Of a stretch of 64,000 nucleotides of DNA, positions 1-39,365 are shown piece after piece (positions within the stretch are counted from its first letter, which is position 1; the number at the start of each line of letters is the position of its first letter). This DNA is from an uncultured Nitrospiraceae bacterium. Lineage in GTDB: Bacteria > Nitrospirota > Thermodesulfovibrionia > Thermodesulfovibrionales > Dissulfurispiraceae. The DNA lies in contig CAMTVO010000020.1 in assembly GCA_947085205.1 (NCBI GenBank), forward strand, positions 21,043 through 85,042, written 5' to 3'. The notes under the pieces were generated by a model. The model was not told where the DNA came from, searched no databases, and saw nothing but the letters and a program-made list of their open reading frames with translations. The position numbers and the translations under genes are program-made.

Positions 1-1
1 A

Positions 2-2473
2 AATATCCCGAATGAGATAGCCACAACATTAAGGAATATCGGCGACGCCTATTGCGACCTCGTTGAATATGATAAAGCTCTCACATATTATCAGGATGCG
101 TTGGATATACAGAAGAAACACAATTTTCGTTTTGATATGGCAGCAACCCTGACAAACATAGGGGCTTTTTACAAAGACCTTAATCAATATGATAAAGCCC
201 TTTCCTACTATGAGGGATCACTAAAAATAAGCAGGGAACTTGACAACTCTGCCGATACTGCCACAAACCTGAATAACATAGGCAATGTATATGCATCTCT
301 CGGTAAATCCGATAACGCCCTCTCTTATTATCATCAGGCATTGAGCATAGAAAAGCAGCTCAACAGGCCGCACAAAATGGCTATAACTCTTAACAACATC
401 GGCATGGAGCATTTCCGTCTCGGCAGGTACGAACAGGCACTTTCTTATCTTAATGAGGCGCTTAAAATAGAAAGGAAGTTGAGCAATCCGCATAATATCG
501 CTGCGAGACTGAATAATATCGGAGCTGTTTATTTGCGGCAAAAAAGATACAGAGAAGCTGAAGATGTATTTCTTGAAAGGAAAGATATAGGAAAGAGAAT
601 CACAAAGACCAGATTAATACATGCCGGATTAATAGAAGTTTATCTTGCAACAAAAAGATACGATGAGGCATTGGCCTTGCTGAGAGAACTGCCTCCAAAC
701 TGGAGGGATAGCAGGAATCGCCGCATGGAATACCACACACAGTATGGTCTGGCATTAAAAGGCAAGGGACTACTCAGGGAGTCTGCGCAGGAATTGTTAA
801 AGGCGGTTTCAATAGTTGAAGAGATAAGGCGTTCAGTGGGTGAGAAGAGTGAGTTTTTTGCCGGTGGCGGTTATATCGGCAGGTTAACACCTCACAGAGA
901 GCTTGTAGCAGTTCTCTCAGAAATGGCTCTCAGAGGAGAAAGACCTGATGATAGCTTTAAACCTTTCGGCAGGGATTTGGCATCCGCCGCATTTTATTTT
1001 TCGGAGTTTACAAAGGCAAGGGCGTTTCTTGAGACAATGGCAGGCTCTGCAAGGAAATATGACGAGCTTGAAATTCCTTCTGAAATAAAAAACAGAGAGG
1101 CAGATATTCTAAAGGAGCTTTCATCAATAGAAGACAACTGGGAAAATGCCTATTCAAAAGGCGAGGCTGTTTTCAAAAGGCTTTCGCAGAGAAAAGAAGA
1201 GCTTAATAGAGAGCTAAATTCTCTGATTTCCTCCATAAGAAAAGATTTCCCTGCATATGCTGCCGTAAATTATCCAAAGCCCATGCCGGCTGAAGACATG
1301 TCATTAACGGCAAATGAAGTCTTAATAGAGTTCGGCATAAGCAATGATGCAGTTGTTGTTTTTGTTGTAAGAAAAGGCGGTGTAAATAAAATCCATAAAA
1401 TAAACATCTCTAAAGAAGAACTGACCGAGAAAGTAAAGAAATTTATAGAACCTTTAAATTCTGGAAGGCACTCTGAATTTTCAACAAAGCTCGCAAAAGA
1501 GCTTTACGATATGCTGCTTTCAGGGTCACTGAAAGATGTTAAGGATTCGGAAAAACTGATAATTGTCCCTGACGGAATACTCGGTCTTTTGCCATTTGAG
1601 GCATTGGTGATAAATGCAGGAAAAGACTATAAAGGTAATCTCTTTGTTGGCGACAAATGGACAATAACGTACAGCCAGTCTGCAACAGCGCTTGCATTAA
1701 CAAGGCTTTTGAAGCCCTCCGAAGCTAAAAAGCCTCTTTTTGCTTTGGGCAATCCTGTATATGACAAATCAGACCCGAGATATATAGCATATAAAAAAGG
1801 CGGCTCTCAACAAATTGCTGCAAAGGATGTTAAACAATATGCTTACAGGGGCATCACCGTACTGCCGAAGGGGGAAAGGGAATGGGAAGAGGTAATATAT
1901 TCGCCCCTTCCAGAAACAGAGGATGAGGTCAGAGAGATAGCAAAACTGTTTGGTGTAAAACCTGAGATGCCGGAGGTGCTTTTGAATATTTCGGCAAATG
2001 AAACAAATTTCAGGAATACCTTTCTTAAAGACTATCGCTACATACATCTTGCAACCCATGCAGACTTGCCCGGAAAGGTTCAGGGCATAAAGGAGCCGTT
2101 TATAATTCTCGGTCAGGTCGAAAACAGGGGGCAGGATGATGGATTCCTCACCCTCACCGAAGTCCTCGAATTGAAACTTGACGCTGACATGGTGGTTTTG
2201 TCCGCCTGCTCCACGGGCAAAGGCAAAATGATGGAAGGTGAAGGTGTTGCCAATTTTGCAAGGGCATTTCAGCATGCAGGCACGAGAAGCGTTGTAGTGA
2301 GCCTCTGGGAGGTGGCTTCAGACGCAGCAGTAGAATATATGAAGTCGTTTTATAGCCACATAAAGTCAGGCAAGAGCAAGGCAGAGGCATTGAGCCTTGC
2401 AAGAAACGAGATAAAGGCAAAATACCCGAATCCGTTTTACTGGGCAGTATTTATATTGTATGGAGAGGGATAA
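2..2473 (+). CDS. TPR-repeat + CHAT-domain (clan CD) protease, 5' end outside window
   Basis: Frame is open from base 2 (NIPNEIATTLRNIGDAY...). It carries tandem TPRs (ATNLNNIGNVY, AITLNNIGMEH) and CHAT motifs LIIVPDGILGLLPFEAL, YIHLATH (His), VVLSACST (Cys), SLWEV and NPFYWAVF. Confidence 0.92.
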   Translation, partial: NIPNEIATTLRNIGDAYCDLVEYDKALTYYQDALDIQKKHNFRFDMAATLTNIGAFYKDLNQYDKALSYYEGSLKISRELDNSADTATNLNNIGNVYASLGKSDNALSYYHQALSIEKQLNRPHKMAITLNNIGMEHFRLGRYEQALSYLNEALKIERKLSNPHNIAARLNNIGAVYLRQKRYREAEDVFLERKDIGKRITKTRLIHAGLIEVYLATKRYDEALALLRELPPNWRDSRNRRMEYHTQYGLALKGKGLLRESAQELLKAVSIVEEIRRSVGEKSEFFAGGGYIGRLTPHRELVAVLSEMALRGERPDDSFKPFGRDLASAAFYFSEFTKARAFLETMAGSARKYDELEIPSEIKNREADILKELSSIEDNWENAYSKGEAVFKRLSQRKEELNRELNSLISSIRKDFPAYAAVNYPKPMPAEDMSLTANEVLIEFGISNDAVVVFVVRKGGVNKIHKINISKEELTEKVKKFIEPLNSGRHSEFSTKLAKELYDMLLSGSLKDVKDSEKLIIVPDGILGLLPFEALVINAGKDYKGNLFVGDKWTITYSQSATALALTRLLKPSEAKKPLFALGNPVYDKSDPRYIAYKKGGSQQIAAKDVKQYAYRGITVLPKGEREWEEVIYSPLPETEDEVREIAKLFGVKPEMPEVLLNISANETNFRNTFLKDYRYIHLATHADLPGKVQGIKEPFIILGQVENRGQDDGFLTLTEVLELKLDADMVVLSACSTGKGKMMEGEGVANFARAFQHAGTRSVVVSLWEVASDAAVEYMKSFYSHIKSGKSKAEALSLARNEIKAKYPNPFYWAVFILYGEG

Positions 2474-2483
2474 TAGCTGATTT

Positions 2484-2499
2484 ATGGTAATTTTCACTT
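2484..2499. promoter_or_regulatory. Copy of the shared 16-bp operator-like motif (ATGGTAATTTTCACTT)
   Basis: Reverse-orientation match to the motif at 6483/13443/24375/33715. TATAAT lies at 2513-2518, at a shorter spacing than in the other copies. Confidence 0.45.
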
Positions 2500-2689: not shown

Positions 2690-4309
2690 ATGAACAGAAA
2701 TATCTTTTTTGTTTCGGTTTTTATTTTGTTTGTGATTTTTGCTTTTAGTTTTAATGCATGGGCATCTCCCGCAGAGATAGAGAGTGTCCCTAAAATCCAG
2801 AACATTGTCCTTTATCCGGACAGCGCAATGATAAAGAAAGAAGCAACGGTTGCGGTTAAGAAAGGCGAAAATATCATAGGGATTTCGGGGTTGACCGTAA
2901 ATTTAACTGACGAATCTGTTCAGGTGAATATTAAGGAAAAGGCTGCTGTCAGAATATCCAGTGTCAGAGTTGAAAAGACTTATCTCCAGAAGACAATGCA
3001 GGATAAGATAGAGAAACTCCAGTCAAGACTTGAAAGTATTAATGAGCTTATAAAGGAACACTCAAATGAAATCTCCGCAATAAACAGTTCCATCGAATTT
3101 TTAAAGAAGACAATTCCATTCCCTCAAAACCAGAAGGTTACACAGGCCGAGGTCGAAGGGCATGCTAAGTTTATCGAAAAATCTTTGTCGGCAAGCTACG
3201 ACAGGACTGCAAAGCTTGAAAATAAAATAAAGAAACTTAATGAAGAAAAGAGGGCAGTGGAAAATGAGCTTAAAAAACTAAGCTCATCGAGGGATGAAAG
3301 CAAAACTGTTGTAATCAATCTGCTTTCGAATGCAGACCGGGAGATTAATCTGGGACTCTCCTACATCGTTACAAAGGCGGGCTGGTCTCCACAGTACGAT
3401 GTAAGGGCTGACTCTGCTGCAGGAAGGATCGATATTGTTTGCTTTGCAACCATAACCCAGTCTACCGGCGAGGACTGGAAGAATGCGAATATCGAGATTT
3501 CTACGGCAAGGCCTTCTTACGGGCCTCCGCCGGAACTTTCCGCATGGTATGTGGATGTATACAAGCCGAGGCCTGTGGTTTATAAATACAAAAAGGCTAT
3601 TGAGGATGCGGATTTCATGATGAGCAAGGAGAAGGCGTTAGAGGCAGCTCCGGAGCAGCGATTCGAAGAGCCGAAGATAAAGGCAGAGGCGACATCATTC
3701 AGCTTTATAATCCCGGGCAAGGTCAATATCCCGTCAGACAACCAGCCGCACAGGATATTAATCTCATCCTCGTCCAAAGAGGCTAAACTCGACTATTATG
3801 CAGCGCCGAAGCTCTCGCGGTATGCGTATTTAAGGGCGGGCCTTAAAAATCCGCTTCCGTTTCCAATCTTCTCAGGGCAGATGAGTATATTTTTAGATGA
3901 GCGGTTTGTGAATACAACATCTGTTGATAAGCAAATCCTTCCTGATGATGACATGAGTTTGTCACTTGGAATCGATGAAGGAATAAAAGTAGAGAAAAAG
4001 CTCCTGAAGAAATTTACCGAATATTCCGGCGTGTTTTCGAAAGATACTCAGATAGGCTATGAATATGCGATTGACATTGTCAGCAGCAAAGATAAAGAGA
4101 TCGGCATCAATATCAGCGATAATTTCCCTGTCTCAAGAAACGAGCAGATAAAGGTCGCTCTTGAATCTCCCAAAAAAGAGGATGCAAAGATTGCTGACGA
4201 CGGAATAATATCATGGGATTTAAAGCTTAAGCCCAATGAGAAGAAAACCCTGAAAATAAAATTCAGGGTCGAACATCCGAAAGACTTGAAGATTACGGGA
4301 TTGGAGTAG
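2690..4309 (+). CDS. DUF4139/DUF4140 (MuiA-like) exported protein
   Basis: Signal peptide, N-terminal VLYPDSAMI, a coiled coil, then WSPQYDVR, QSTGEDW..ISTARP and LSLGID.I.VEKK motifs. GGAGG RBS. Confidence 0.85.
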   Translation: MNRNIFFVSVFILFVIFAFSFNAWASPAEIESVPKIQNIVLYPDSAMIKKEATVAVKKGENIIGISGLTVNLTDESVQVNIKEKAAVRISSVRVEKTYLQKTMQDKIEKLQSRLESINELIKEHSNEISAINSSIEFLKKTIPFPQNQKVTQAEVEGHAKFIEKSLSASYDRTAKLENKIKKLNEEKRAVENELKKLSSSRDESKTVVINLLSNADREINLGLSYIVTKAGWSPQYDVRADSAAGRIDIVCFATITQSTGEDWKNANIEISTARPSYGPPPELSAWYVDVYKPRPVVYKYKKAIEDADFMMSKEKALEAAPEQRFEEPKIKAEATSFSFIIPGKVNIPSDNQPHRILISSSSKEAKLDYYAAPKLSRYAYLRAGLKNPLPFPIFSGQMSIFLDERFVNTTSVDKQILPDDDMSLSLGIDEGIKVEKKLLKKFTEYSGVFSKDTQIGYEYAIDIVSSKDKEIGINISDNFPVSRNEQIKVALESPKKEDAKIADDGIISWDLKLKPNEKKTLKIKFRVEHPKDLKITGLE

Positions 4310-4327: not shown

Positions 4328-5827
4328 ATGAAATACATCTTTGGGGTTGTTATTACTGTGTTTTTAGTTTTACCCGCCTCTGTTTTTGCAGAGACAAAGA
4401 ATATTATTGCAGAAGGCGAATATATAATGGGTGATGGAGAGACAATGGCGATTGCTGAGGAACGGGCACAGAAAGAGGTAGTCCGACATGCAGCTGAAGA
4501 GGCAGGGGCTTTTGTAAAGAGTTACACAAAGGTCAAAAATATGGCTCTTCAGGAAGATGTAGTGGAAGTCATTGCCAACCATTCAATGAAGATTACTGTG
4601 TTGGAGAAGAAAAGGACAATGGTGGGTGATGCAGTTAAATTTTACTCAAAGATAAAGGCAGTTGTTACAACAGAGGAGATAGAGGCAAATCTTGAGAAAG
4701 TTCGGAAAGAAAGTAAAATTGTAGATATGTACAAGAGACTTATAGATGAATACAGCAGGCAGACAAAAGAAATGGAAGAACTGAAGAGAAAGCTCTCGGT
4801 TGCACAGGGAGAAGATAAAAAGGCAATATTGGGGAAAATTGCTGCCGAGGAAAATCTCTTTAAAGCAAACCTGTTGTTTGAGGAAGGAATGAAGGCTAAG
4901 GAAGATTTTAAATCCCAAGATGCCATAGAAGCATTTACAGGTGCAATTGCGTTAAATCCCATGTTTGCGGATGCATATGCTGTAAGAAGCGACGCGTATA
5001 GTGCGATTTTTCAGTTCAAGAAAGCCATTGAGGATATCAACAAGGCAATTGAAATCAAGCCTGAAAACCCTGATTTTTATGTTGTCAGAGCAATGACTTA
5101 TCCTGGGTGTTCCGACTCATATAGAAATGTTTGCAAAGCAGGGGCTGAGGAGGATGGTATGGTCGGAGATATGAAATGCAGAGAAATCAGCCCCGACGAT
5201 TGTAAGAAAGCTTTGAATGACATCGGGAAAGCTATTCAACTGAAACCGGAAATTCCCTTTTATTATCTTACGAGAGCGGGGTTATATCATCAGGCTGAAA
5301 TGTATGACAAGGCTATGGAGGAGTTTACAAAAGTCATATCCATGCAACAAAAATTATCAGAAGAATGGCCTATCTCTCTCGTTATGGCATATTTGTCCAG
5401 AGCAGAACTTGCAAAAAAGAAAGGTGATAAACATGCATTTATTGCCGATTTGACATCAGCAATAACAGTCGTTGTGAATTCAAAATACTATAATGAGAAG
5501 CTCAGGAAACTCTCTAATATTTTAAGAGAAGCACGGAACAAAAAATATACGGACCAACAAATGGAAGCGGTGTTTGCAAAGGAATATAATGTTGACCCCA
5601 AGAACGAAAAGGAATTGAAGAGATTGCGTGATCGGGCAGACAATCTTCTTTTTGTATCTGCCTTATACATAGGACGTTCTGATATTTATATGGATATGGG
5701 CTTAAAGGAAAAGGCCGACAGAGATATCAAAACTGCTTGTGAATTCTTCTGGATAGAAGGAATTTGCGAGATTTTGGGAAAAGACACAAAGAAATCTACT
5801 GGAAAACCGTCAAAGAAAAAGCGATGA
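4328..5827 (+). CDS. Exported protein: LPP20/FlgT-N-like domain, coiled coil, TPR repeats
   Basis: Signal peptide (ASVFA|E); N-domain AEGEY..G.GET...AEERA....AAE.AGAFV; TPRs (AIEAFTGAIALNP, AIEDINKAIEIKP). Confidence 0.75.
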   Translation: MKYIFGVVITVFLVLPASVFAETKNIIAEGEYIMGDGETMAIAEERAQKEVVRHAAEEAGAFVKSYTKVKNMALQEDVVEVIANHSMKITVLEKKRTMVGDAVKFYSKIKAVVTTEEIEANLEKVRKESKIVDMYKRLIDEYSRQTKEMEELKRKLSVAQGEDKKAILGKIAAEENLFKANLLFEEGMKAKEDFKSQDAIEAFTGAIALNPMFADAYAVRSDAYSAIFQFKKAIEDINKAIEIKPENPDFYVVRAMTYPGCSDSYRNVCKAGAEEDGMVGDMKCREISPDDCKKALNDIGKAIQLKPEIPFYYLTRAGLYHQAEMYDKAMEEFTKVISMQQKLSEEWPISLVMAYLSRAELAKKKGDKHAFIADLTSAITVVVNSKYYNEKLRKLSNILREARNKKYTDQQMEAVFAKEYNVDPKNEKELKRLRDRADNLLFVSALYIGRSDIYMDMGLKEKADRDIKTACEFFWIEGICEILGKDTKKSTGKPSKKKR

Positions 5828-6482: not shown

Positions 6483-6525
6483 ATGTGAAAATTACCTTTA
6501 CGTGCGAGATTGGCGCTGATATAAT
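6483..6525 (+). promoter_or_regulatory. Operator-like motif + sigma70-type promoter
   Basis: ATGTGAAAATTACCTT (6483-6498) overlapping TTTACG-N17-TATAAT. Confidence 0.7.
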
Positions 6526-6548: not shown

Positions 6549-7538
6549 ATGAATAAAAAGATATTTATAAGCCTTTTTCTTTTTACGCTTTTCTTAAGTC
6601 CTGCTTTTGCCTCTGAAAAGCAGGAATGTCCCGTAAACCCCAAGAATATTGTTTATGAAAAATACACATCGGGGGGTAATTTTTTTGTTGTATTGATCCC
6701 TAAAGGCTGGGGCAAAAAAGAAAAGAATTTTTCACACGCTTACACAAGAACAGGGGATAAGGTATTCGGAGTAGAGCTTTCCGGACCGCATAATGCTGCT
6801 GGCTGTGTTCCAGTAGAAAAAGTACCTGGATCTGGAGGTGAGGTTATCCAAATAAAGCAGGGAACTGTCGGCACTTTCCATGAACTCCGGATAGGTGTCG
6901 CAAATATAATCAAAGCTGATTATCTTGATGAGGCTGGCACAAAAAAGCATGGTTTAATAGCTATATTGATATTATTTATTGAAGGGAATCCCCCGCAAAA
7001 AAAGGACTTTAAAGTTCATGCGGGGCAGAAGATAATAATGGACAACTACTCAGTGTATGTGGAAGAAATACGAGGAACAGTTAAAGGCTTAGTAATATTG
7101 CGGATAGAAGAGATTTCTAAATCTCCGTATAAAGACGAGGCCCGCCCGACAATCTCCGTTTTGTATTATGAGTACGGACAGTTTTTTAAAAGTTATGAGA
7201 GATATATCAACCTCAAAATAGGATCTTTCACGCGCCTCGCCCCGGAAAAAGATGTCTCTATTACAAATACGGCAGTGGCGGGAAGAGAGGCTAAAAAATT
7301 TGAGATTGAAAAATTTGAACTTATTATGCTGCCTTTTGATCCGCCTGATTTCAAGGAAGGCATCATGCATGAAATTGTCCCGCCTTCAAAGAAAGTTACA
7401 GTCATAGAAAGATACATTGTAATCCCGGCTGAGAAAGGTTTTTATGTATTGAACTACAGGGCCTCGCCTGATATTGTAAAAAGTATTGAAGGGATATTTG
7501 AAAAGATTTTAAACTCTTTTGAACCATTGACAAAATGA
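6549..7538 (+). CDS. Exported hypothetical protein, PsbP/Mog1-like termini with a possible internal insert
   Basis: Signal peptide (PAFA|SE); F.VLIPKGW near the N-terminus; VAGREAKKF and FYVLNYRA...FEKILNSF at the C-terminus. Confidence 0.6.
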   Translation: MNKKIFISLFLFTLFLSPAFASEKQECPVNPKNIVYEKYTSGGNFFVVLIPKGWGKKEKNFSHAYTRTGDKVFGVELSGPHNAAGCVPVEKVPGSGGEVIQIKQGTVGTFHELRIGVANIIKADYLDEAGTKKHGLIAILILFIEGNPPQKKDFKVHAGQKIIMDNYSVYVEEIRGTVKGLVILRIEEISKSPYKDEARPTISVLYYEYGQFFKSYERYINLKIGSFTRLAPEKDVSITNTAVAGREAKKFEIEKFELIMLPFDPPDFKEGIMHEIVPPSKKVTVIERYIVIPAEKGFYVLNYRASPDIVKSIEGIFEKILNSFEPLTK

Positions 7539-7577
7539 AAGAATTATACGACTGGAAAAATTTTCATGGGAGGGGAT

Positions 7578-8774
7578 ATGTTTACATTTAAGAGTTTATT
7601 GCGCTCTTTAGCAGGCAGGCTTGGGGTTATTGCTATACTGTCAATAAGTTCAGCTTCAATTTTTGCCGCTGAAAAGCTTGCCCCAGTCCCGCACTCAATG
7701 CGGGATAAGCAGGGGCCGGAGATATCTGCACAGGATTCAGATATTCAGAAGAGCAACTGGCTACTTGGCGTGATACTCAAGCTGGGAAATATGAGAGACA
7801 AGGCAATAGCGGATATTCAGAAATACGAAGGTGAAATCCAGAAATGCGACACCACTATAAGTAAATCTGAAAACATTGTAAGACTTGCCCAGCAGAAAGG
7901 TAATGTGCAGGCGGAAATAATTGCCCGTGAGGCATCGCTCAAGGCACAGGAAGCAAAGTTAAAGAATAAAGAGAAAAAGAATTCAGCAGAGCTTAATAAG
8001 AAAAGGGTGGATGCGGCGCTCGACCATATGCGAAAGGACGGTGCGGAACCTGAGGCCATGCTGGAGCAGGTTGAATTTGAAAATATGAACGACCGGTGGG
8101 TGCAGAACCAGAAGCATCTTATTGAACAACGGCTCAAGGAACCCAATCCTTATGCAAGTGAGATATACCGGTCGCTCAAGACGAAAGTCCCTCCTGTCCT
8201 GCCTGATAGAAAGTATGACAAGCTTCAGCCCGGTGATGTGCTTCTCTTTTCGCCAGACGACACAAAGACTTTTTGGATTAATTTTGGAGATAAACTATCC
8301 TCAGCCTCTAAATCGCCTGCCTATCACACGGTTCTCTATCTCAAAGAAGTTAACGGCAAAAAGCTCTTCCTTGACAATAGACCGGGAAGGGGCTCTCATG
8401 TGATCAGCGAATAAGAGTTCTTGCGGACTTACGGCCGGAGTGACGCATTAGTCGCTTCGCTTGCGCAACCGTTAACAAAAGATGAGGCCGGTAAAATATG
8501 GAATACTGCCAAGGAATTGATAAAGAAAGAGTCTGTTATCCAGCAAAACGCGTCCGGGAACATTTTCGATAAGACAGGCTACGGTCTCTATGGGAATGAC
8601 AACATGGTCTGTTCGGAAACTTCCCGCTGGGCCCTGGTCAAGGCCGGCCGGGATATTCCGGAAACTGCTTCCCCGCTCAAGAGGCTGCTCGGTATTCACT
8701 ACGGCCCGTCAAACTTTTATAACGATAACCACAATTTTATTATAACCCCTTTATGGGGCGCTGCAGAAAAGTGA
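7578..8774 (+). pseudogene. Exported coiled-coil + permuted papain-like (NlpC/P60, YiiX/C92-like) protein split by one in-frame TAA (8412-8414)
   Basis: ORFs 7566-8414 and 8421-8774 are in the same frame. LQPGDVLLF and AYHTVLY (His) precede the stop; MVCSET (Cys) follows it. Confidence 0.7.
7677..7715. repeat. 39-bp in-frame palindromic insertion
   Basis: CTTGCCCCAG-[TCCCGCA-CTCAA-TGCGGGA]-TAAGCAGGGG. Absent from the homologous site at 13892-13903. Confidence 0.7.
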
Positions 8775-8777
8775 CCT

Positions 8778-8915
8778 ATGAAGCCAGTAATTACTCAAGG
8801 GGACAGGACCATGATAATCAATGCAGGGCACAAAGGCGCTGTTGCAAAAGACGGCAAGTTATCAGAACCAGAAAAGATTGATTTATCAAAAATAGAAAGG
8901 TGGTGGGAAAAGTGA
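8778..8915 (+). pseudogene. 45-aa ORF resembling the C-terminal tail of a FecR-domain protein
   Basis: MKPVITQGDRTMIINAGHKGAVAKDGKLSEPEKIDLSKIERWWEK*; not in the ORF track. Confidence 0.35.
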
Positions 8916-8917
8916 AA

Positions 8918-9958: not shown

Positions 9959-9982
9959 CCGCTCAATTAAGGAGATATCGCC

Positions 9983-11020: not shown

Positions 11021-11155
11021 GAGGGCTTGCTAACGAAGGAAAATCAATCCCGGCGCAATTCCGGGATCATAGCATACGGGGTCAGGCATGAGTATTGACT
11101 TATTTGAGCCGCATGAAAAATAGGTGGGCTATCCTGCTGGAAGGAGCAACAAAGA

Positions 11156-11683: not shown

Positions 11684-11794
11684 GTAATGTGCGGCAGTTT
11701 TTATAAACATAATCAGGGTTTTTGGTTTTCTATGATAAAAATAAAGGGAGTGAATTTATTGCCTTGCGGGCAAGCATGGAGGGAAGCAGGACAA

Positions 11795-12815: not shown

Positions 12816-12831
12816 AAAGGAGGTGATTTTT

Positions 12832-22125: not shown

Positions 22126-22177
22126 TACTTAATCTGTGCGGTATTAAAGTTTGGCTGAATCAGGAGGGTTTATTTCG

Positions 22178-28934: not shown

Positions 28935-29011
28935 GATAAATATATTGTAAAATAAAGGATTTTATGGGATGATTAAAATAAATAAGCAATCATAAATTAA
29001 GGGGGATAACT

Positions 29012-30795: not shown

Positions 30796-30796
30796 G

Positions 30797-31609
30797 ATGA
30801 AAAGATTTTTAATAATGATTCTGCTTTTGATGCCTGTTTTCTCTTATGCCTCTGAAAAGCCCGTATGGGTAGAGGCGGAGGGAGAGGCATACATGAGCGA
30901 GATTGACACTCCGAAAGAGGTCATTGCGAGAGCAAAAAAGGACGCCCAGAGCAAGGCAGTCGAAAAGGCGGTAGGCGTGTTTATAAGATCACATACCCTC
31001 GTCTCGAACAGCCAGCTTGCGGAAGATCTCATCTACGCCGCTGTGAGGGGGAAGATAGAGAAGACCGAGATAATTAAAAAGGGATGGGATGATAAGGACA
31101 GGAATCTTTACAAAATAAGGCTCAAAGCCCTTATAGAGCCTGTCTATCCTGAAAAAGGGCACGGCATATCGATCAAGCTTTCGCTTTCAAAATCCGTAAT
31201 GAAAGAAGGCGATGAGGTAAAGATATTTTATCAGGCAAACAAAGAATGTTATGTATATATCTTTTCAGTTGCTGCAGACGGCTCGGTTACGCTGCTTATG
31301 CCGAATTCGATGAATCAGGAGAATCACATAAAAGCGAATAAAGCATATGAATTCCCTGTAGGGGGGAGCAGCATACGCTTAAAGGCTTTATTTTTGCCTG
31401 ATTATAAGGAAAAAGTCGCCGAGGAAAAAATTAAAATAATAGCCACAAAAAAGAGAGAGGAGATTGTGCCGCTCGGATTTCAAGAAGGTATGTTCAGGGT
31501 ATACGATGCGAAGTCCACAGGCATGATAAGCGACCTTGTTAAAAAACTTAACCAGCTTGAACCTGCTGACTGGGCAGAGGCAACTGCGGTTTATACGATT
31601 AAAAGATAA
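30797..31609 (+). CDS. Exported FlgT-N/LPP20-like + DUF4384 protein
   Basis: Signal peptide from ATG 30797; GDEVKIFYQANKECYVYIFSVAADGSVTLLMPN is DUF4384-like. Confidence 0.8.
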   Translation: MKRFLIMILLLMPVFSYASEKPVWVEAEGEAYMSEIDTPKEVIARAKKDAQSKAVEKAVGVFIRSHTLVSNSQLAEDLIYAAVRGKIEKTEIIKKGWDDKDRNLYKIRLKALIEPVYPEKGHGISIKLSLSKSVMKEGDEVKIFYQANKECYVYIFSVAADGSVTLLMPNSMNQENHIKANKAYEFPVGGSSIRLKALFLPDYKEKVAEEKIKIIATKKREEIVPLGFQEGMFRVYDAKSTGMISDLVKKLNQLEPADWAEATAVYTIKR

Positions 31610-31651
31610 GGATAATTTTCACCTTCCAAGAAGTTTTTTCTGGTATATAAT
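31609..31651 (+). promoter_or_regulatory. Degenerate operator-like motif + promoter
   Basis: AGGATAATTTTCACCT begins 37 nt before TATAAT (31646), the same offset as most other copies. Confidence 0.5.
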
Positions 31652-32508: not shown

Positions 32509-33720
32509 ATGAAGGGTAATTTAATTTCTTTGATCAGCGTCATCTTTATTCTGCTTGCGGGCATGGCGATGACAGGGTGTGTGACAACAACAGCGAGAAC
32601 ACCACTAATGCAAGCTGTAGAACAAAGCGACAGCAACGCTATCCGAGCTTTGCTTGATAAGGGAGCAGATATAAACGAACAAAGCGACTATGATATAGGA
32701 CCCGGAGGCAAGGGTTGGACTGCCTTACATCTTGCCGCAGTGAAAGATGATATAAAAGTCATTCGTTTATTGTTGGACTATGGTGCAGACCCAGGCATTA
32801 CAACTAAATTTGGTTGGACACCATTGAAGTGGGCGGAGCAGAAAGGCAATAACTTTGTTGCAGGGATGCTCAAGGAGGCTATGGAAAAACGCTATGTGGT
32901 TGACAAGAAACCTACCCATATTACGACTGAAAAACCATTGAAATCCGATGTTGACGAACTTCTAATATTTGTAAACGAGCATAAGGTTATCGGAGATCAG
33001 GATATAGCCATTGTCATTGGCATAGAAAAGTATCAGAATATCCCGAAGTCCGACTACTCAGCAGGTGATGCAAAACTCGTAAAGTCATATTTTAAGGCAC
33101 TCGGGTTTGCAGAGAGAAACATAGAATTCATCACAGATGAAAGGGCGACAAAATCATCCATTGAAAAATCCATAGAGGCATGGCTTCCTAACAGGGTTAA
33201 AAAAGACAGTAAGGTTATTGTCTATTATTCAGGACACGGAGCGCCTGAGCCAAAGACAGGAGACGCTTATATTGTCCCATTTGACGGAGACCCGAATTAT
33301 CTTGAGGTTACCGGGTATCCATTAAAGAGGCTTTACGATAAACTTGGGAAATTGCAAGTTGCAGAGGTTGTAGTTCTTCTTGACTCATGCTTCTCAGGCG
33401 CAGGCGGCAGGAGTGTTTTAGCAAAAGGAGCAAGACCATTGGTGATGATGACAGAGGCATCGGTAATATCGTCAAATATGGCTATCCTTTCTGCAACACA
33501 AGGCACACAGATAAGCACATCATCACCTGAAAAAAGGCATGGGGTATTCACATATTACTTTCTCAAGGCATTAAAAGAAGGAAAGAAGACAATTGCTGAG
33601 ATTTATGAATACATCAAACCGTTGGTGGAGGACGAGGCAAAGACTCTTAATGTCCAGCAAAGCCCGAGCATAAGTCCTGATGCGGAGAAACTGAAGGGGC
33701 GGTTTATTTTGAGACGGTGA
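32509..33720 (+). CDS. Ankyrin-repeat + caspase (C14) lipoprotein
   Basis: Lipobox MTG|C; ankyrin repeats (TPLMQAV, GWTALHLAA, GWTPLKWA); VIGIEKY, YYSGHG, LDSCFSG and HGVFTY. Confidence 0.92.
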   Translation: MKGNLISLISVIFILLAGMAMTGCVTTTARTPLMQAVEQSDSNAIRALLDKGADINEQSDYDIGPGGKGWTALHLAAVKDDIKVIRLLLDYGADPGITTKFGWTPLKWAEQKGNNFVAGMLKEAMEKRYVVDKKPTHITTEKPLKSDVDELLIFVNEHKVIGDQDIAIVIGIEKYQNIPKSDYSAGDAKLVKSYFKALGFAERNIEFITDERATKSSIEKSIEAWLPNRVKKDSKVIVYYSGHGAPEPKTGDAYIVPFDGDPNYLEVTGYPLKRLYDKLGKLQVAEVVVLLDSCFSGAGGRSVLAKGARPLVMMTEASVISSNMAILSATQGTQISTSSPEKRHGVFTYYFLKALKEGKKTIAEIYEYIKPLVEDEAKTLNVQQSPSISPDAEKLKGRFILRR

Positions 33721-33757
33721 AAATTACCTTGACTTCATGGCTCAGGCAGGGTAGTTT
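33715..33757 (+). promoter_or_regulatory. Operator-like motif + sigma70-type promoter
   Basis: CGGTGAAAATTACCTT overlapping TTGACT-N17-TAGTTT and the upstream stop codon. Confidence 0.62.
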
Positions 33758-33803
33758 TAAACTATAAAGATTATTTTTGAATAATTTCATAAAGGAGCCG
33801 CTT

Positions 33804-36086
33804 ATGAACGCAAAAAAAACCGCAATAATATTTTTTGCATTGTTATTTCTTTTTTCCTGCGCACCGCCTTCAGAAGTAAAAAAGGATATGCCTGAAATAA
33901 CCGTATCCAAAGAAGAGATTCCGAGGATGGTTGCGATTCTTCCGTTCCAGAACGAAACACAGGAGACGGGAATTGCCAATCAGGTAAGAAGGGCATTTTA
34001 TAACCATTTCAGTTCAAAACCATACACAGATGTTGAGCTTAATATTGTTGATGAAAAGATTATACATCTTGAGAAATCAACAGGGAAAAATATCCTTGAC
34101 CTGAAACCACAGGAGATATGTCAGGCAATAGGATGCGATGGATTAATCTACGGCAAAGTTACTGATTATACAAAGGTTTACGCTGGCGTTTATTCGCAGC
34201 TTGGCGTCGAGGCCGAGGTCTGGATGGTAAATAAGCGGACAGGCAAAGAGGTATTCAGGATAAAGGATGCAGTCAGGTATCACGAAGGCAGCGTGCCTCT
34301 CTCTCCCATCGGGCTGATAATGACTGCGGTGTCTACCGCAATGAACATAAGAGAGATCCAGCAGGTGAGAATGGTGAACGAGCTTGCCCATAAATTCAAT
34401 GAAAAAATCCCCTCCCCCGAAGGTATGGCTGTTGAAGACAGGCCTACGATTAAGGAAGTCCTTACGAATGTTAAAGAGGGGCCTTTCGGCAAAGGGAAGA
34501 TTATAAGAGTCGGACTCGAAGGCGAAAAGGGGCTGGTCGCCACCTTTGACATCGGGAACTTCAAAAAAGGCATTTTGATGAAGGAGACAAAGCCCGGCAT
34601 TTATCTTGGAGAATATCTCGTGATATCCGGAGACAACGCAAAGGACATGCCTATCATAGCCTCCTTAAAAAAGCCCGGTGGTTATGAAAGCCAGTGGATT
34701 GATGTAAGCGGCTTTGTGACCATTGATACAACACCACCGCCGCAGGTAGCCGGTCTAAGGGCAAAGGGATTTCAGGACAGAATAGAGGTTACATGGGAGC
34801 CTCTCAAGAATATTGCTGACTTAAAGGGGTATAAGGTCTTAAGAAGCGAGCAGCCATTGAGCGGATATGCGGAGGTTTCGGCAACAGAACATACATCGTT
34901 TGAAGACAAGACCGCAAAGCCGAACATTGCATATTATTACAGGGTGATTGCTGTTGACCAAGTGGGTAATGAATCCGAACTCGTAGATGCCGTTAAATCA
35001 GCCGTTACATCGAAGGAGCCCGTGCTTTTAAGTGGAGAGATCAGAACGGATACAGCGCTTGCAGGGAATTACATCGTGAAAGATTCGCTGACGGTTCCGA
35101 AGGGTTTATCCCTTGTCATAGAGCCCGAAACGAGGATAATGTTTGAAGAAAACTCGTCGTTGACTGTTTACGGCAAAATAGTCGTAAACGGAAAAGAATC
35201 TCCTGTGGAGTTTATCCCATCGGGTAATAAGAAATGGAAAGGCATTAGCGTCGAGAGAGGCAGCATCACTATAAATGGCTTGAGGATAAAGGGAGCCGTT
35301 ACCGCGATGTTACTGCAAAACGCAGAGGGAATGCTGGATTCAGGAGTAATTACGGACAGCGATACGGGCATTGCGGTTTCCGGTACGCCTTCTGTAATAA
35401 TTAAAAACACTGCCGTCTCAGGAAATAAAACAGGGATAGAACTTCAAAAGACGGACGCAAGGATTATGAACAGCAATATCTTTCAGAATGAAGACGGAAT
35501 AGCTATCAAAAGCTTTTCAGGCGAGATTAAGGACAACAATATTTTTGACAATAGCCTGAACATTTCGTCTGAGTCTATGGTTAAAATCGACCCCAATTAT
35601 CTCGGCTCTATAAATACCGATGAAATGAAAATCAAGGGTGTTGGTATAACTAAGGTTTATGACAACAGGATACCAGGCGGAAAGGTCGTTGATGCGATCT
35701 CAAATCCTTATGCGTCGCTGAGTAATGAAGACCGCCAGAAAAAGGCTACAGAATTCGTCATTGAGGCAGGCAATTATTTCAGGCAGAGGAATTACGGAAA
35801 GGCGACGACACTGTTTGAAGAAGCGCTGAAGGCTCTTCCCACGCCGGATGTTTATTATTATCTCGCTATCTGCTATCAGGAGATGAAAGAAGAGGAAAGG
35901 GCGTTAAAGTATTTGAAAGAAGGCGCAGACAAATTCCCGAAAGATTCGACGCTCCAAAAATCCCTCGGCCTTATGTATTACCAGAAAGGGGATGATGCAG
36001 AGGCGAAAAAGGTATTCGAAGAGGTATTGAGATTAAGCCCAGAAGATAGACAGGTGAGGTTTTTGATGGAGAGAATAGGAAAGTAA
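33804..36086 (+). CDS. Lipoprotein: DUF799/CsgG-like + FN3 + right-handed beta-helix + TPR
   Basis: Lipobox LFS|C; VAILPFQN; DGLIYGKVT; FN3 (DTTPP, VTW, GYKVLR, YYYRVIAVD..GNES); beta-helix (N..GI repeats); C-terminal TPRs. Confidence 0.8.
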   Translation: MNAKKTAIIFFALLFLFSCAPPSEVKKDMPEITVSKEEIPRMVAILPFQNETQETGIANQVRRAFYNHFSSKPYTDVELNIVDEKIIHLEKSTGKNILDLKPQEICQAIGCDGLIYGKVTDYTKVYAGVYSQLGVEAEVWMVNKRTGKEVFRIKDAVRYHEGSVPLSPIGLIMTAVSTAMNIREIQQVRMVNELAHKFNEKIPSPEGMAVEDRPTIKEVLTNVKEGPFGKGKIIRVGLEGEKGLVATFDIGNFKKGILMKETKPGIYLGEYLVISGDNAKDMPIIASLKKPGGYESQWIDVSGFVTIDTTPPPQVAGLRAKGFQDRIEVTWEPLKNIADLKGYKVLRSEQPLSGYAEVSATEHTSFEDKTAKPNIAYYYRVIAVDQVGNESELVDAVKSAVTSKEPVLLSGEIRTDTALAGNYIVKDSLTVPKGLSLVIEPETRIMFEENSSLTVYGKIVVNGKESPVEFIPSGNKKWKGISVERGSITINGLRIKGAVTAMLLQNAEGMLDSGVITDSDTGIAVSGTPSVIIKNTAVSGNKTGIELQKTDARIMNSNIFQNEDGIAIKSFSGEIKDNNIFDNSLNISSESMVKIDPNYLGSINTDEMKIKGVGITKVYDNRIPGGKVVDAISNPYASLSNEDRQKKATEFVIEAGNYFRQRNYGKATTLFEEALKALPTPDVYYYLAICYQEMKEEERALKYLKEGADKFPKDSTLQKSLGLMYYQKGDDAEAKKVFEEVLRLSPEDRQVRFLMERIGK

Positions 36087-36143
36087 TATAATGCATATGC
36101 TCCATGCAAACGGATAGTCTTGCTTTTAAGGGAGGGGTTCACA

Positions 36144-37742
36144 ATGCGTAAAAGAACAAAATGGCTCGGATTGATATTGCTGGCATTGCTTGCGACCGGG
36201 TGCGTTACCATATCAAAAGACATGTATCAGCGCAATATGGTATGGGATACCGTTCCTGCTGGCGGGTATATAGATGCCAATGTTCATATAGAATCCGACT
36301 GCAACTTCAGTGCGGAGTATGCGAAGTTGTGGAGAGACTGGATGAACACCGATGAAACCATTGCAAATTACAAGAGAGCGGTTTGCGAACGCATTACCGA
36401 AGATATGATTAAATCACGCATATTTACGAGGGTCGACATAGGCGGTCAACTGGATCTGCTGATCAGGATTGAGTATACCGAATCTCAGGCTGACCAGAAG
36501 GTTGCCGTTAATGTCATGGATCCCATAAGCGGTAAAGTTCATGCGATATATGGAACATCTTCGGTCCGGATGGGCTACGGGTATGAGAATTTTAATGCCA
36601 ACTTAAAGCGCATGCTTTCCGAGATAAGAAGCCAGATGCTTGCGGAATATCAGGCAGGAAAAGGCATAAAGACGCTACTCGCCTCAAGGCAGGCTCTCGG
36701 CGTTACGCAGCAGGCTCAACGATATAAGACTGACGCGGAAGATATAACCGTGCCGTTGTCCCCCGGCGAGAAACTTCCTCCTCTCAGGCGTGAAATATAT
36801 GCGGTTGTGATCGGCATAGACTACGCAGGCAGGGAAGATATGCCTAATCTTCAATACGCGGCGACAGACGCTAAAAAGGTATACAGCCTGCTGGTAGACC
36901 CACGATATGGAGGAGTGCCTAAAGAAAATGCAATACTACTTCTCAACGAAAAAGCAACAAGGAACGAAATGGTAGCGGCATTGAGAAAGATAAAGAACTG
37001 GGATGGATATGTATATGTTTATTACTCGGGTCACGGAGCGCCCAAGACAAAAGGAGACAAGTTCATGGATGCCTTTCTTGTGCCTCATGATGCTGTAATA
37101 ACCGACCCCGAGGCGATGGAAGATACAAGCATAAAGATGTCATATCTACAGGAGCTCGTGGACACATCCAACGCAAAGGGAGTAATGCTTGCCTTGGATG
37201 CCTGTTTTTCAGGAGGAGGAAAATCCATAGTACCAAAGGGAGGGAAGCCCTTGGTAGGAATAATGGTAACTCCCGAGATAATGAAACCGAAGGGTACGGG
37301 CAAGGTAATTATCACGTCATCCGCGACAAACGAGCAATCGTGGGAAGACGAAAAAGAACTAAAATCAGGCATATTCAGCCATTATCTGCTGGAGGGGATG
37401 AAGGGCGGCGCCGGGAAAGACATGTGGGTGAAGGTGGATGAACTGGCGGATTACATAAAGGAAAACGTATCGAGGGCGGCGAGAAAATTAAAGGGCATGA
37501 ATCAGAATCCCCAGATATCCGGCAGGGGAGATTTTGCAGTAACGAGGAACTGGGAGAGGGCAAAGGTAATGGACGTAGAGATAGCCAGATCTAAGCTCAA
37601 ATCGGCGTTTGAGAGCGGAAGTATCAGTGCGGATCAGTTGAGCAGGGCGCTGGATGAACTTAAGTCGCAGAGTCGTTCGAAGACTCTGGATGCGTTTTTG
37701 CAAGGCAAGATCGATGATAAGAAGTTCGGGGATTTATATTAA
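36144..37742 (+). CDS. Caspase-family (C14) lipoprotein, paralog of 29638-30795 with a different N-domain
   Basis: Lipobox ATG|C; YYSGHG and LDACFSG; C-terminal part closely similar to 29638-30795. Confidence 0.9.
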   Translation: MRKRTKWLGLILLALLATGCVTISKDMYQRNMVWDTVPAGGYIDANVHIESDCNFSAEYAKLWRDWMNTDETIANYKRAVCERITEDMIKSRIFTRVDIGGQLDLLIRIEYTESQADQKVAVNVMDPISGKVHAIYGTSSVRMGYGYENFNANLKRMLSEIRSQMLAEYQAGKGIKTLLASRQALGVTQQAQRYKTDAEDITVPLSPGEKLPPLRREIYAVVIGIDYAGREDMPNLQYAATDAKKVYSLLVDPRYGGVPKENAILLLNEKATRNEMVAALRKIKNWDGYVYVYYSGHGAPKTKGDKFMDAFLVPHDAVITDPEAMEDTSIKMSYLQELVDTSNAKGVMLALDACFSGGGKSIVPKGGKPLVGIMVTPEIMKPKGTGKVIITSSATNEQSWEDEKELKSGIFSHYLLEGMKGGAGKDMWVKVDELADYIKENVSRAARKLKGMNQNPQISGRGDFAVTRNWERAKVMDVEIARSKLKSAFESGSISADQLSRALDELKSQSRSKTLDAFLQGKIDDKKFGDLY

Positions 37743-37751
37743 TGTAAGGAA

Positions 37752-39365
37752 ATGAGAAAATCAATCGGCTTATGCCTTTTATTAGTGATGCTTTTTGGGG
37801 GGTTGTCTTACGCCAAGACCCTTATACTCGAAGGGAGGCTCAACAGCAGGGTTCAGGTGACCCAGCAGATAAACTTCAGTGTCAGCAGTCCCCTCTCAAA
37901 ACTCTCTTTCAGGTTTGCACTCCCGGCAGGCTTTTCAAATAAAACTGTTTCACAGAATATTCACGGATTCAATATCAATTTTGACCCTCAGCCTGTAAAG
38001 ATTGATGATGAGACAGATGCGTTTGGAAACAGGTTTAAGATAGCTGCATGGAACAATCCCTCCAGAGATGTGAGGTTAAATATAACCTTTGAGGTGTCCT
38101 TAAAATCTGAGCTGTCAGCAATGGAAAGCATATCTCCTTATCCTTTAAAGTCAATACCCCAGAACGAAATGATTTATCTTAAGCCCACTGAGATGGTTCA
38201 GAGCAGCAGTCCGGAGATTGTCTCCCTTTCAAGAAAACTTGTAGGCAACGCAAAAACAGAATATGAGGCAGTTACTGCCATACTGAATTATGTTATAGAT
38301 AATGTTAAGTACACCTATAATCCTCCGCAATTCGATGCCCTGTATACGCTGAAAACAAAATCGGGCAACTGCCAGAACTTCGCCCATCTCAACATGGCGC
38401 TTTTACGTGCTGTCGGCATACCGGCCCGTATTGTGGGAGGCATAAGCCTGAAACAGCCGCTGAAGGTGACTGTCGGCAATAACGATTTTCTTGTGCAGAG
38501 TTTAGGACAGGGAGGCCACGCCTGGATGGAGATCTATTTTCCGGATCTGGGATGGCTGTCTTACGATCCCCAGCAGTCAAAGCAGTTTACGTCTTCACGG
38601 CATATCAAACAGACTCACGGTCTCGATTCGGATGATATAAACGACTCATGGAGAGGGGCTCCTTATCTGCCGGAATACAGCGAAACCGTGAATGCCAAAT
38701 TTCTTGACGATGTTATTTCGCTTAAAATGAAATCTTCGGAAAGGTCGCCGAGGGCATATTTTTTGAGTAATAATTTTTTTACAAAGGCCGAAGTAAAGCC
38801 GTATCCGCCTTATGAAAAGCCGAAATTGCCGCCCGGTAAAATTATAGAATTCGGCAATATGGAGTTTCCGAGTCTTGTAAATATATATCAGATAGTGGGA
38901 GATAAAGGCGTGAGGATACTCGATAAGGAGACCGCCGAATATGTAACGTCCAGCTATGTATATGCTCAGGCATTCGAGATAGACGAAAAGCTGAATATCG
39001 ATAAAATTTCCCTTGCGATGAGAAAATTCGGCGGAGACGGCACTGTTTATGTGGACCTCGTATCCGACGAAAACGGCAGGCCGGGGTTTGAAGGGATGCG
39101 ATCCGTGCCTCTATTTCTCGAAAACATCAAAAGGATGCCCGGATATTATTGGGTGGATTTTACTTTTCCGGAGAAAGCAGTTCTTAAAAAGGGCAGATAC
39201 TGGATAGTTCTGAGGCATTCGGGAGAAGCGATAATGAACTGGTTTTATATTCCCGGAAATCCTTACGGCGACAGCGACGACACTCGTTCTACATTAAAAG
39301 GCTACAAGTGGGAAGATATACAGAACTATGACTTTGTTTTCAAGGTAAGAGCAGGTAGATTATAA
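37752..39365 (+). CDS. Exported transglutaminase-like protein, copy 2 (intact)
   Basis: Signal peptide (SYA|K); GNCQNFA / HAWMEIYFP / YDP triad. Confidence 0.88.
   Translation: MRKSIGLCLLLVMLFGGLSYAKTLILEGRLNSRVQVTQQINFSVSSPLSKLSFRFALPAGFSNKTVSQNIHGFNINFDPQPVKIDDETDAFGNRFKIAAWNNPSRDVRLNITFEVSLKSELSAMESISPYPLKSIPQNEMIYLKPTEMVQSSSPEIVSLSRKLVGNAKTEYEAVTAILNYVIDNVKYTYNPPQFDALYTLKTKSGNCQNFAHLNMALLRAVGIPARIVGGISLKQPLKVTVGNNDFLVQSLGQGGHAWMEIYFPDLGWLSYDPQQSKQFTSSRHIKQTHGLDSDDINDSWRGAPYLPEYSETVNAKFLDDVISLKMKSSERSPRAYFLSNNFFTKAEVKPYPPYEKPKLPPGKIIEFGNMEFPSLVNIYQIVGDKGVRILDKETAEYVTSSYVYAQAFEIDEKLNIDKISLAMRKFGGDGTVYVDLVSDENGRPGFEGMRSVPLFLENIKRMPGYYWVDFTFPEKAVLKKGRYWIVLRHSGEAIMNWFYIPGNPYGDSDDTRSTLKGYKWEDIQNYDFVFKVRAGRL

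Follow-up and report, generated by a model that had tools for sequence, protein, structure and literature searches.

The stretch of DNA analysed here (64,000 nt, hereafter the window; G000:C20:21043-85042, where G000 is the source genome and C a contig) belongs to an uncultured Nitrospiraceae bacterium with a 1.9 Mb genome that is 90% complete. It contains most of a gene island for caspase-type proteases, transglutaminase-like enzymes, ring-like envelope proteins, an MCE cassette whose ATPase lacks its catalytic motifs, and a cyclic AMP (cAMP) signalling arm. The island begins at C20:15511, 5.5 kb 5′ of the window, ends at window position 39365, and is bordered on both sides by housekeeping genes; among named organisms, its nearest homologues come from Nitrospirota (Thermodesulfovibrionales, Dissulfurispira). 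Together these genes constitute a conserved system that several groups of anaerobic bacteria have in common and whose presence in other genomes is nearly all-or-none. We tentatively favour the view, at somewhat below an even chance, that the system carries out surveillance of the envelope under the control of cAMP and has a diversifying set of proteases; all of the interactions in this view are inferred. The original prediction, made from the letters of the window, had described an exported caspase, transglutaminase and outer-membrane scaffold locus; this observation proved largely real and is confirmed in part, and its interpretation as an envelope-located sensing and proteolysis platform is partly supported. 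The cAMP arm, a shared promoter box, the loss of ATPase motifs, the hypervariability of WD40 domains and the serpins of relatives had no place in that prediction and were found here.

One line of evidence for a system is its distribution. Gene content was compared across 60 relatives of the same order and 20 non-Nitrospirota genomes chosen from 80 loci carrying the pseudo-ATPase of the MCE cassette (other G numbers denote compared genomes, L numbers fetched loci). A full-length transglutaminase-like gene is present in 13 of the 60 relatives, the FecR-TPR gene in the same 13, and the LPP20-like gene in 12 of them; the thirteenth core genome has a 1-kb run of N at the LPP20-like position. Partial transglutaminase matches in G042 and G054 were excluded from this core count. 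The pseudo-ATPase was found in 16 relatives, including all 13 core-positive ones, and the transglutaminase, FecR-TPR and LPP20-like genes are found in none of the other 44. (The genome search for the pseudo-ATPase also caught ordinary ABC ATPases, and the 16 counted are matches of at least 161 bits, the next best being 126.) The FlgP-like/DUF4384 gene likewise occurs in 13 of the 60, namely 12 core-positive genomes and G039. The core is found in four of 13 families and is patchy even within the family of the window (7 of 36 genomes). Outside the order, all three diagnostic genes are present in 11 of 11 Desulfobacterota-type genomes; in the family to which G075 belongs (that of Trichlorobacter), 33 of the 61 genomes sampled have FecR-TPR. 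Core genes are single-copy and 60-85% conserved, and the same genes recur in shuffled order in G008, G018, G027, G032, G045, G057, G058, G026, G046, G062, G063, G066, G070 and G071. Homologues are also carried by harmless species that are in culture (Thermodesulfovibrio, Dissulfurispira thermophila and Trichlorobacter thiogenes). The co-occurrence of neighbouring genes that the original prediction called for is strong in Thermodesulfovibrionia and Desulfobacterota.

The features of the island are given below, with positions in the window unless a contig is named. Pfam supports the CHAT domain, four C14 domains, two Transglut_core domains, DUF4384, CsgG, SLH, a GNA1162-like domain, MlaE, MlaD and ABC domains, and CRP. 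Export was predicted with a home-made signal and lipobox rule that also counts membrane anchors; 29 of 39 open reading frames of the extended locus pass this rule, versus 229 of 1393 genome-wide.

C20:15511-20307: FecR-TPR protein, FlgP-like/DUF4384 protein, internally deleted WD40-caspase (a sixth clan CD gene) and CHASE2 adenylate cyclase, all 5′ of the window
1..2473 (+): TPR-CHAT protease, 3′ part; the full gene starts at G000:C20:20375, after the CHASE2 cyclase
2486..2497 (-): promoter box, reversed copy (GGTAATTTTCAC on +); -10 absent at 16-18 spacing
2690..4309 (+): DUF4140/DUF4139 (MuiA-family) exported protein, island-recurrent
4328..5827 (+): exported TPR protein in a variable region; through its relatives, the N-terminus is seen to resemble the FlgP-like/DUF4384 adaptor
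6485..6496 (+): promoter box GTGAAAATTACC abutting TTTACG-N17-TATAAT
6549..12630 (+): variable cargo, comprising exported proteins of unknown family, small membrane proteins and a TPR-PDZ-thioredoxin protein (9983-11020)
7566..8774 (+): papain/NlpC-like gene, broken by an in-frame TAA (8412-8414)
13445..13456 (+): promoter box abutting TTGACC
13799..17959 (+): WD40-caspase, Peptidase_C14 (Pfam)
17978..18862 (-): TPR lipoprotein, fourth gene of the MCE cassette
18855..19811 (-): MlaD with a 153-amino acid tail
19831..20472 (-): MlaF-like pseudo-ATPase
20469..21245 (-): MlaE permease
21312..22064 (+): CRP-family regulator (cNMP-binding and helix-turn-helix domains)
22151..23365 (+): exported FlgT_N-like protein; Pfam match below cut-off
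23387..24358 (+): exported CsgG-like protein
24377..24388 (+): promoter box abutting TTTACA-N17-TAAACT
24456..25670 (+): core lipoprotein with C-terminal SLH domain, termed TPR-SLH (the TPR label is a sequence pattern only)
25698..26618 (+): LPP20/FlgP-like protein with a second domain (core)
26622..27131 (+): FlgO-like protein; weak Pfam match
27289..28935 (+): transglutaminase-like enzyme 1, a local duplicate that is frameshifted at 28868 in the present assembly
29012..29626 (+): 204-amino acid lipoprotein, island-recurrent
29638..30795 (+): caspase lipoprotein 1
30767..31609 (+): FlgP-like N-domain plus DUF4384, candidate scaffold adaptor
31611..31622 (-): reversed variant of the promoter box, with TATAAT at the corresponding distance
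32509..33720 (+): ankyrin-caspase lipoprotein
33717..33728 (+): promoter box abutting TTGACT
33777..36086 (+): GNA1162-like/Fn3/beta-helix/TPR lipoprotein
36120..37742 (+): caspase lipoprotein 2
37752..39365 (+): transglutaminase-like enzyme 2 (core)

The five clan CD proteases recognized in the window are borne out by Pfam, and their His/Cys dyads read as intact. Specifically, the CHAT domain (E 3e-60 in 2-2473) retains ATHA/LSACSTG, and the four C14 proteins carry AGHG/IDACKSG, SGHG/LDACFSG (twice) and SGHG/LDSCFSG. These four C14 proteins and one CHAT protein are the complement of the entire genome, and all lie in the island. The full-length TPR-CHAT protein has 1046 amino acids and its own signal peptide, located 5′ of the window. 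The claim that all four C14 proteins carry export signals holds for the three with lipoboxes and not for the WD40-caspase, which fails the signal rule with Glu16 within the hydrophobic core of its signal; its three closest orthologues pass. Export signals are general among relatives, since 46 of 60 C14 domains in the fetched loci carry a signal or lipobox by the same rule. The remaining 14 include several fragments and three cytoplasmic-type copies in G019 (L035, L036), which are near-identical small caspases without an export signal, repeated in tandem close to both a CHAT gene and an insertion sequence. These G019 caspases are a separate cytoplasmic-type system.

Variation is concentrated in the caspases. 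Between the WD40-caspase and its three orthologues the propeller is 30-42% identical, whereas the C-terminal linker and C14 domain are 88-94% identical, which lends indirect support to the proposal that the repeat domains act as sensors. Among 19 caspase N-terminal regions scanned, 13 match ankyrin, PDZ, TPR, WD40, CARDB or S41 and six match nothing. The copy number of C14 ranges from 0 to 14 per genome, with 66 copies in 11 of the 13 core-positive relatives. Local duplication is evident in caspase lipoproteins 1 and 2, whose DNA is 83% identical over 300 nt; the SHOCT-like helical C-tails assigned to them by eye have no Pfam match. Signal-peptide DNA is common to unrelated cargo genes (83% between the papain-like gene and the WD40-caspase), and a remnant at 12630-12790, comprising a signal peptide and first WD40 motif, has sequence in common with the papain-like gene and with the start of the WD40-caspase, which suggests domain shuffling. 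In the 5′ extension, the gene at G000:C20:17457-18182 (L019:12457-13182) is a WD40-caspase with a large internal deletion, in which a signal peptide and the first blades are followed by the caspase tail in another frame; its counterpart is intact in G008 and G027. Elsewhere, G018 encodes an S41 (CtpA-like) protease, PDZ and caspase in a single exported protein (L011:9523-11880), a caspase is fused to an SLH protein in G032, and two caspases directly follow the MCE cassette in G067, a Gammaproteobacteria/Verrucomicrobia-type genome that lacks the three diagnostic genes.

The metacaspase-type residues D31 and D141 are invariant across 29 C14 sequences and align with yeast metacaspase. Such acidic S1 Asp residues have a role in Arg/Lys specificity (PMC6426788), and the island proteases would likely cut after Arg or Lys. 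A candidate inhibitor, probably of matching specificity, is found in relatives. Serpins occur in five of 80 genomes, in four of them within the island, and not in G000; they have inhibitory-type hinges and, by standard hinge counting, Lys at P1 in all cases, which is consistent with the invariant Asp residues of the C14 proteins. Serpins are reportedly able to inhibit metacaspases, according to the title of a study cited in PMC8233489.

The MCE transporter of the original prediction stands as to its MlaE (PF02405, E 1.6e-58) and MlaD (MCE domain PF02470, E 8e-15) genes, but its ATPase is a pseudo-enzyme without catalytic motifs. The pseudo-MlaF has TNSDYENR at Walker A, LPFHE at the signature, MIYDSI at Walker B and VTFD at the H-switch. 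Among 306 homologues the best 120 were compared, and not one keeps Walker A, the Walker B DE, the H-switch or LSGG at the signature, whereas two other MlaF proteins of the same genome are canonical in all motifs. A normal MlaF as partner would presumably not restore a site, since the Walker side and the signature side are both gone. Furthermore, Walker A was found in only one of 74 open reading frames of the wide locus, and that one lies outside any MCE cassette. The cassette consists of MlaE, MlaF-like, MlaD and TPR lipoprotein genes, with MlaD at 76, the lipoprotein at 70 and MlaE at 63 of 80 loci; no MlaC, MlaA or MlaB match was found in the locus with Pfam. If helical, the 153-amino acid MlaD tail would span ~23 nm, and this long tail with its lipoprotein resembles the arrangement of PqiB/PqiC. 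Within 10 kb of the cassette, the 80 loci include 24 with cAMP genes (counted as a CRP/cNMP protein, CHASE2 cyclase or class II phosphodiesterase), 17 with caspase or CHAT genes and 17 with ring genes. A BrkB-cNMP protein or class II phosphodiesterase is a frequent neighbour, and a cAMP gene directly adjoins the cassette in G039 and G051. In several Nitrospirota a fusion of a BrkB/YihY membrane protein and a cNMP-binding domain immediately follows the TPR lipoprotein (L013:2781-3995); it is a candidate cAMP-gated effector. The cassette also stands alone among housekeeping genes in L102-L118 (Gallionellaceae, Verrucomicrobia) and L055-L062 (Sulfuricaulis-type), and it may therefore have a function of its own.

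The island clusters a CHASE2 class III cyclase, whose motifs look intact, with a FecR protein and a Crp regulator. A second, conventional cyclase-FecR-phosphodiesterase cluster is located at G000:C10:60291-69499; it contains genes for a GspE/PilB-like ATPase, a CHASE2 cyclase, a FecR-like protein, a barrel-like protein ending in Phe, and GAF/HD-type and phosphodiesterase-like proteins, most of these labels being sequence resemblances. A 12-bp box of pattern GTGAAAATTA[CT]C has seven copies in the genome, six of them in the island. Four forward copies abut TTGAC or TTTAC with a -10 element at 17-18 bp, which places the box centre at approximately -41.5, the position of a class II CRP/FNR site. 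The box is again intergenic in the islands of seven relatives, is conserved before TPR-SLH in G008, G018, G027, G032 and G057, and also lies 5′ of caspase genes on other contigs (G018:C21, G017:C63, G058:C4). The exact 16-mer has 30 sites in 10 of the 13 core-positive relatives versus four sites in three of the 47 others, and no site in the 20 outside genomes; a reversed 16-mer control gave none in 80 genomes. CRP orthologues of at least 50% identity are present in 11 of the 13 core-positive relatives; G014 and three core-negative genomes also have them, and the 20 outside genomes have none. A role of the box as a -35 element for an extracytoplasmic function sigma factor is less likely, given that a sigma70-type -35/-10 pair lies directly next to the box and that both orientations of it are found. 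Two exact boxes (C61:49753, C73:46825) accompany the partial transglutaminase (G054:C20:16743-17654) of core-negative G054, possibly a decayed copy.

As for the scaffold, DUF4384 and CsgG are found by Pfam as predicted and the LPP20 assignment holds, whereas the FlgT_N and FlgO matches fall below the Pfam cut-off. The LPP20-like protein matches FlgP structures by sequence (E 4.5e-11) and LPP20 clusters in the Atlas. Its low-confidence model aligns with residues 68-318 of Tp0624, corresponding to D1-D2 (Z 11.2, root-mean-square deviation (rmsd) 14.2, 192 aligned), and also with Lpp20. The CsgG domain (Pfam E 1.5e-41) matches CsgG in the PDB (E 2e-4); the FlgT_N-like protein has no PDB sequence match. 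The N-domain of the DUF4384 protein matches FlgP (E 0.003), and DUF4384 genes adjoin caspase genes in most fetched islands. SLH and OmpA-like anchors are also present among the island proteins. After the LPP20-like gene, G008 (L003:11511-12988) and G027 (L009:8721-10210) encode a small helical protein and a coiled-coil/OmpA-like protein (labelled by eye), which is possibly a second wall anchor. An exported barrel-like protein of ~250 amino acids that ends in Phe and has no Pfam match is encoded 5′ of the FlgT_N-like gene in four genomes (L123:4475-5233, L127:1834-2598, L128:142-900, L129:5487-6230); it was not found in G000.

Both transglutaminase-like proteins are supported by Pfam, and they are local duplicates. 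The Cys-His-Asp core of the transglutaminase-like enzyme, with NCQN, H236 and D252 invariant, has PDB matches. The model of the enzyme (pLDDT 62.7) aligns with 3isr (Z 16.0, rmsd 4.4, 233 aligned) and also with TgpA. A signal peptide is followed by a beta-sandwich in the model, and the C-domain of enzyme 2 is, in this low-confidence model, a jelly roll resembling a carbohydrate-binding module or lectin; it aligns with the lectin-like domain of the S-layer protease Cwp84 (Z 9.5, rmsd 5.8, 126 aligned). The enzyme may either cross-link or cut envelope proteins. The frameshift in enzyme 1 is seen in this assembly and not in contigs of two other runs (X2, X5) from two studies, which carry the extra base and so an intact gene; contigs of four of six listed runs were compared and a possible source run was excluded. 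The papain-like gene fared less well than predicted. It is interrupted by its in-frame TAA and has no Pfam match, although the Atlas gives a lead to NlpC/P60 (0.89), and no full-length relative was found among the fetched loci.

These observations suggest the following mechanism. A fixed core (MCE cassette, FecR-TPR, CHASE2 cyclase, LPP20-like protein, SLH proteins and one transglutaminase) would span and brace the periplasm, while swappable, putatively exported caspases would recognize foreign or damaged proteins through fast-changing repeat domains. LPP20, FlgT_N, CsgG, FlgO and GNA1162-like proteins may assemble into rings in the outer membrane that SLH domains hold to the wall, and on these rings FlgP-like/DUF4384 proteins could dock the caspases as plug-in sensor-effectors damped by serpin. 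MlaE, dead MlaF, MlaD and the TPR lipoprotein would connect the outer membrane to the inner one as a tether or relay that needs no ATP, and not as a pump, with FecR-TPR passing the signal to the CHASE2 cyclase. In Nitrospirota, cAMP-bound CRP would then switch genes on through the shared box and amplify the response; another regulator may take the place of CRP in Desulfobacterota. Cross-linking or cleavage of envelope proteins by the transglutaminase-like enzyme would be the constant output. A bolder version, which we regard as possible on the doubtful side, holds that this is a periplasmic immune system: exported caspases whose WD40, TPR, ankyrin or PDZ domains are hypervariable receptors, seated on flagellar-ring-like scaffolds and restrained by cognate Lys-P1 serpins, would detect invaders and trigger transglutaminase cross-linking, with the MCE complex as an ATP-free trans-envelope signal wire feeding a cAMP-CRP loop. 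Such a system, with predators, phage tails or injected effectors as the invaders, would be a bacterial parallel to clotting by protease cascades.

Several findings weigh against the surveillance proposal. Export rests on the home-made rule, both structure models (LPP20-like and transglutaminase) are of low confidence (pLDDT 62), and PADLOC returned only generic cyclase, TPR, cNMP and caspase domain matches among 20 proteins scanned. The TPR part of TPR-CHAT is not hypervariable, being 49-58% identical versus 64-67% for CHAT. Caspases are not confined to the system, as 12 of 47 core-negative relatives hold 33 copies of C14. Conversely, no C14 was found in four of 24 core-positive genomes (G046, G056, G062, G066), and because of this we regard caspases as swappable modules rather than the constant switch of the original prediction; the enzyme constant across core-positive genomes is the single transglutaminase-like protein. 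The MCE cassette lacks the transglutaminase, FecR-TPR and LPP20 genes in nine of nine Gammaproteobacteria/Verrucomicrobia-type genomes and in G014, G039 and G051, and none of the genes of the system lies within 10 kb at 47 of 80 cassette loci, many of which are short. The regulator and box are imperfectly matched: G010, G029 and G055 have CRP orthologues without box or core, G031 and G046 have CRP and no exact box, G045 has boxes and no CRP match, and G026 and all 11 Desulfobacterota-type genomes lack both. Because of these exceptions, assignment of the box to CRP is plausible but not clean. The counts themselves derive from profiles built in part from genomes that were later scored, related genomes are not independent, and several are incomplete.

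Other explanations must be considered for the same genes. A possible though doubtful one is envelope maintenance, in which a cAMP-regulated remodelling machine uses a TgpA-like enzyme and rings to brace or repair the outer membrane and wall, with caspases as quality-control proteases. The transglutaminase model matches to TgpA and 3isr, the SLH and OmpA-like anchors, and the single-copy conserved core all agree with this explanation, as does the Tp0624 D1-D2 unit, proposed as an envelope stabilizer in passages of PMC5104382. The PDZ-caspase and S41-caspase fusions are also reminiscent of DegS/Prc-type sensing. However, the system is present in only 13 of 60 close relatives and is patchy even within a genus, its repeat domains change much more quickly than a housekeeping sensor would require, and its genes turn over rapidly and leave pseudogenes. 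It is unlikely that the island encodes a secretion or assembly apparatus, in which CsgG/FlgT/FlgP-like rings and an MCE needle export or anchor a surface layer that the transglutaminase cross-links and the caspases mature. The CsgG domain, the Cwp84-like lectin domain and the barrel-like protein 5′ of the scaffold would fit such a role, but the neighbours include no curli subunit or other conserved substrate, the fetched islands of G026 and G057 lack CsgG and FlgT_N genes, and the sole ATPase is dead.

We consider it quite unlikely that the genes form a co-regulated collection rather than one machine, whereby a cAMP/CRP regulon and an insertion hot spot gather independent cassettes (MCE-TPR, cyclase-FecR, ring genes, caspase-DUF4384 pairs). 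Modules are indeed dispersed in Trichlorobacter-type genomes and in G017 and G031, MCE cassettes and single exported caspases occur alone, and PIN and nucleotidyltransferase toxin-antitoxin genes are interspersed. Against this, presence is all-or-none even where the genes are unlinked, the modules are grouped anew, in varying order, in several families and in two phyla, and fusions join modules (caspase-SLH, FlgP-like-DUF4384). Finally, the FlgP, FlgT_N and FlgO resemblances, and the presence of FlgI and flagellin in four of five genomes tested, might point to a flagellar motor accessory such as an H-ring or basal disk. This is very improbable: the flagellar genes lie on other contigs (C14, C2), and no match to FlgI or flagellin was found in G058, a 99% complete genome that carries the entire scaffold.

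The surveillance system proposed here would be new as a system, built from known parts; no description of the combination was found in the literature searched, mostly open-access text without supplements. The nearest relative of its signalling arm is the Sinorhizobium meliloti CyaD1/D2/K-Clr cascade, in which passages of PMC5498481 describe the FecR-domain protein SMc02177, dispensable for signal perception, and the TPR protein SMb20495. Both clusters hold a CHASE2 cyclase, a periplasmic FecR-domain protein, a TPR protein and a CRP-family regulator, and both have exported targets. In the island, however, FecR is fused to TPR, and the dead-ATPase MCE cassette, rings, transglutaminase and caspases are added; the Clr box (HGTYHCNNNNGRWACA) also differs by eye from the shared box of the island. 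A CHASE2 cyclase-phosphodiesterase-FecR-TPR cluster is described for Campylobacterota in passages of PMC9239204, and the second cluster of G000, on C10, is a conventional copy of it. The MCE genes resemble MlaFEDB in their operon of MlaE, MlaF-like and MlaD genes, and differ in the subfamily-wide loss of ATPase motifs and the TPR lipoprotein as fixed partner. If the proposal is correct, an MCE complex with a motif-less ATPase in several phyla would have a role other than lipid pumping. TgpA of Pseudomonas aeruginosa and 3isr of Cytophaga hutchinsonii share the Cys-His-Asp core with the island enzyme, which is soluble with a signal peptide, has an added lectin-like C-domain, and is without the multi-pass membrane N-domain of TgpA.

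To our knowledge, the bacterial caspase systems that have been studied most closely are cytoplasmic. Type III-E CRISPR Csx29/Csx30 and gasdermin-caspase systems also use TPR-CHAT or caspases with sensor repeats, but their proteases are cytoplasmic, whereas export signals are predicted here, and no Cas7-11, Csx30, gasdermin or sigma factor match was found in the locus with Pfam, NCBIfam or PADLOC. In 2012, probable signal-peptide N-terminal helices of prokaryotic caspases and their enrichment in Nitrospirae were noted without context (passages of PMC3501461). Metacaspases, orthocaspases (C14B) and CHAT proteins share the His-Cys dyad, acidic S1 residues and WD40, TPR or ankyrin fusions with the island proteases; the passages compared of these surveys (PMC3501461, PMC6426788) mention neither a conserved system in the envelope nor a scaffold, a serpin or control by cAMP. 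DUF4384 appears beside proteases in passages of PMC6426788 and bioRxiv 2022.08.17.504292, the latter also giving it as the C-terminal domain of Csx30. Of the flagellar proteins FlgP, FlgT and FlgO, the island scaffold has a FlgP-type domain and below-cut-off resemblances to the other two, and its LPP20-like model aligns with Helicobacter pylori Lpp20 and Treponema pallidum Tp0624 (passages of PMC5104382), although this scaffold, unlike the H-ring or basal disk, is unlinked to flagellar genes and persists without a FlgI or flagellin match. Curli (type VIII) secretion shares the CsgG domain, and no CsgA, CsgB, CsgE or CsgF partner was matched among the open reading frames of the locus with Pfam or NCBIfam. 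The locus places exported prokaryotic caspases in a defined setting and supplies candidates for their inhibitor and adaptors as well as a promoter box, and the question of their function therefore becomes testable.

Some minor features of the window complete this description. The toxin-antitoxin-type genes inside the island encode PIN (12709-13403), nucleotidyltransferase (31735-32480) and PIN_3 (39377-39763) proteins, with similar insertions in G008 and G018; the nucleotidyltransferase is accompanied by a frameshifted, HEPN-like partner. An origin of the island as a mobile element or prophage was considered and rejected, there being no tRNA and no inverted repeats, and G+C content is near the genome mean except at 8-12 kb (~0.51). 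At the contig end (62262-64000), G+C content rises to 0.55 and open reading frames overlap on both strands, and this segment is possibly mobile or misjoined.

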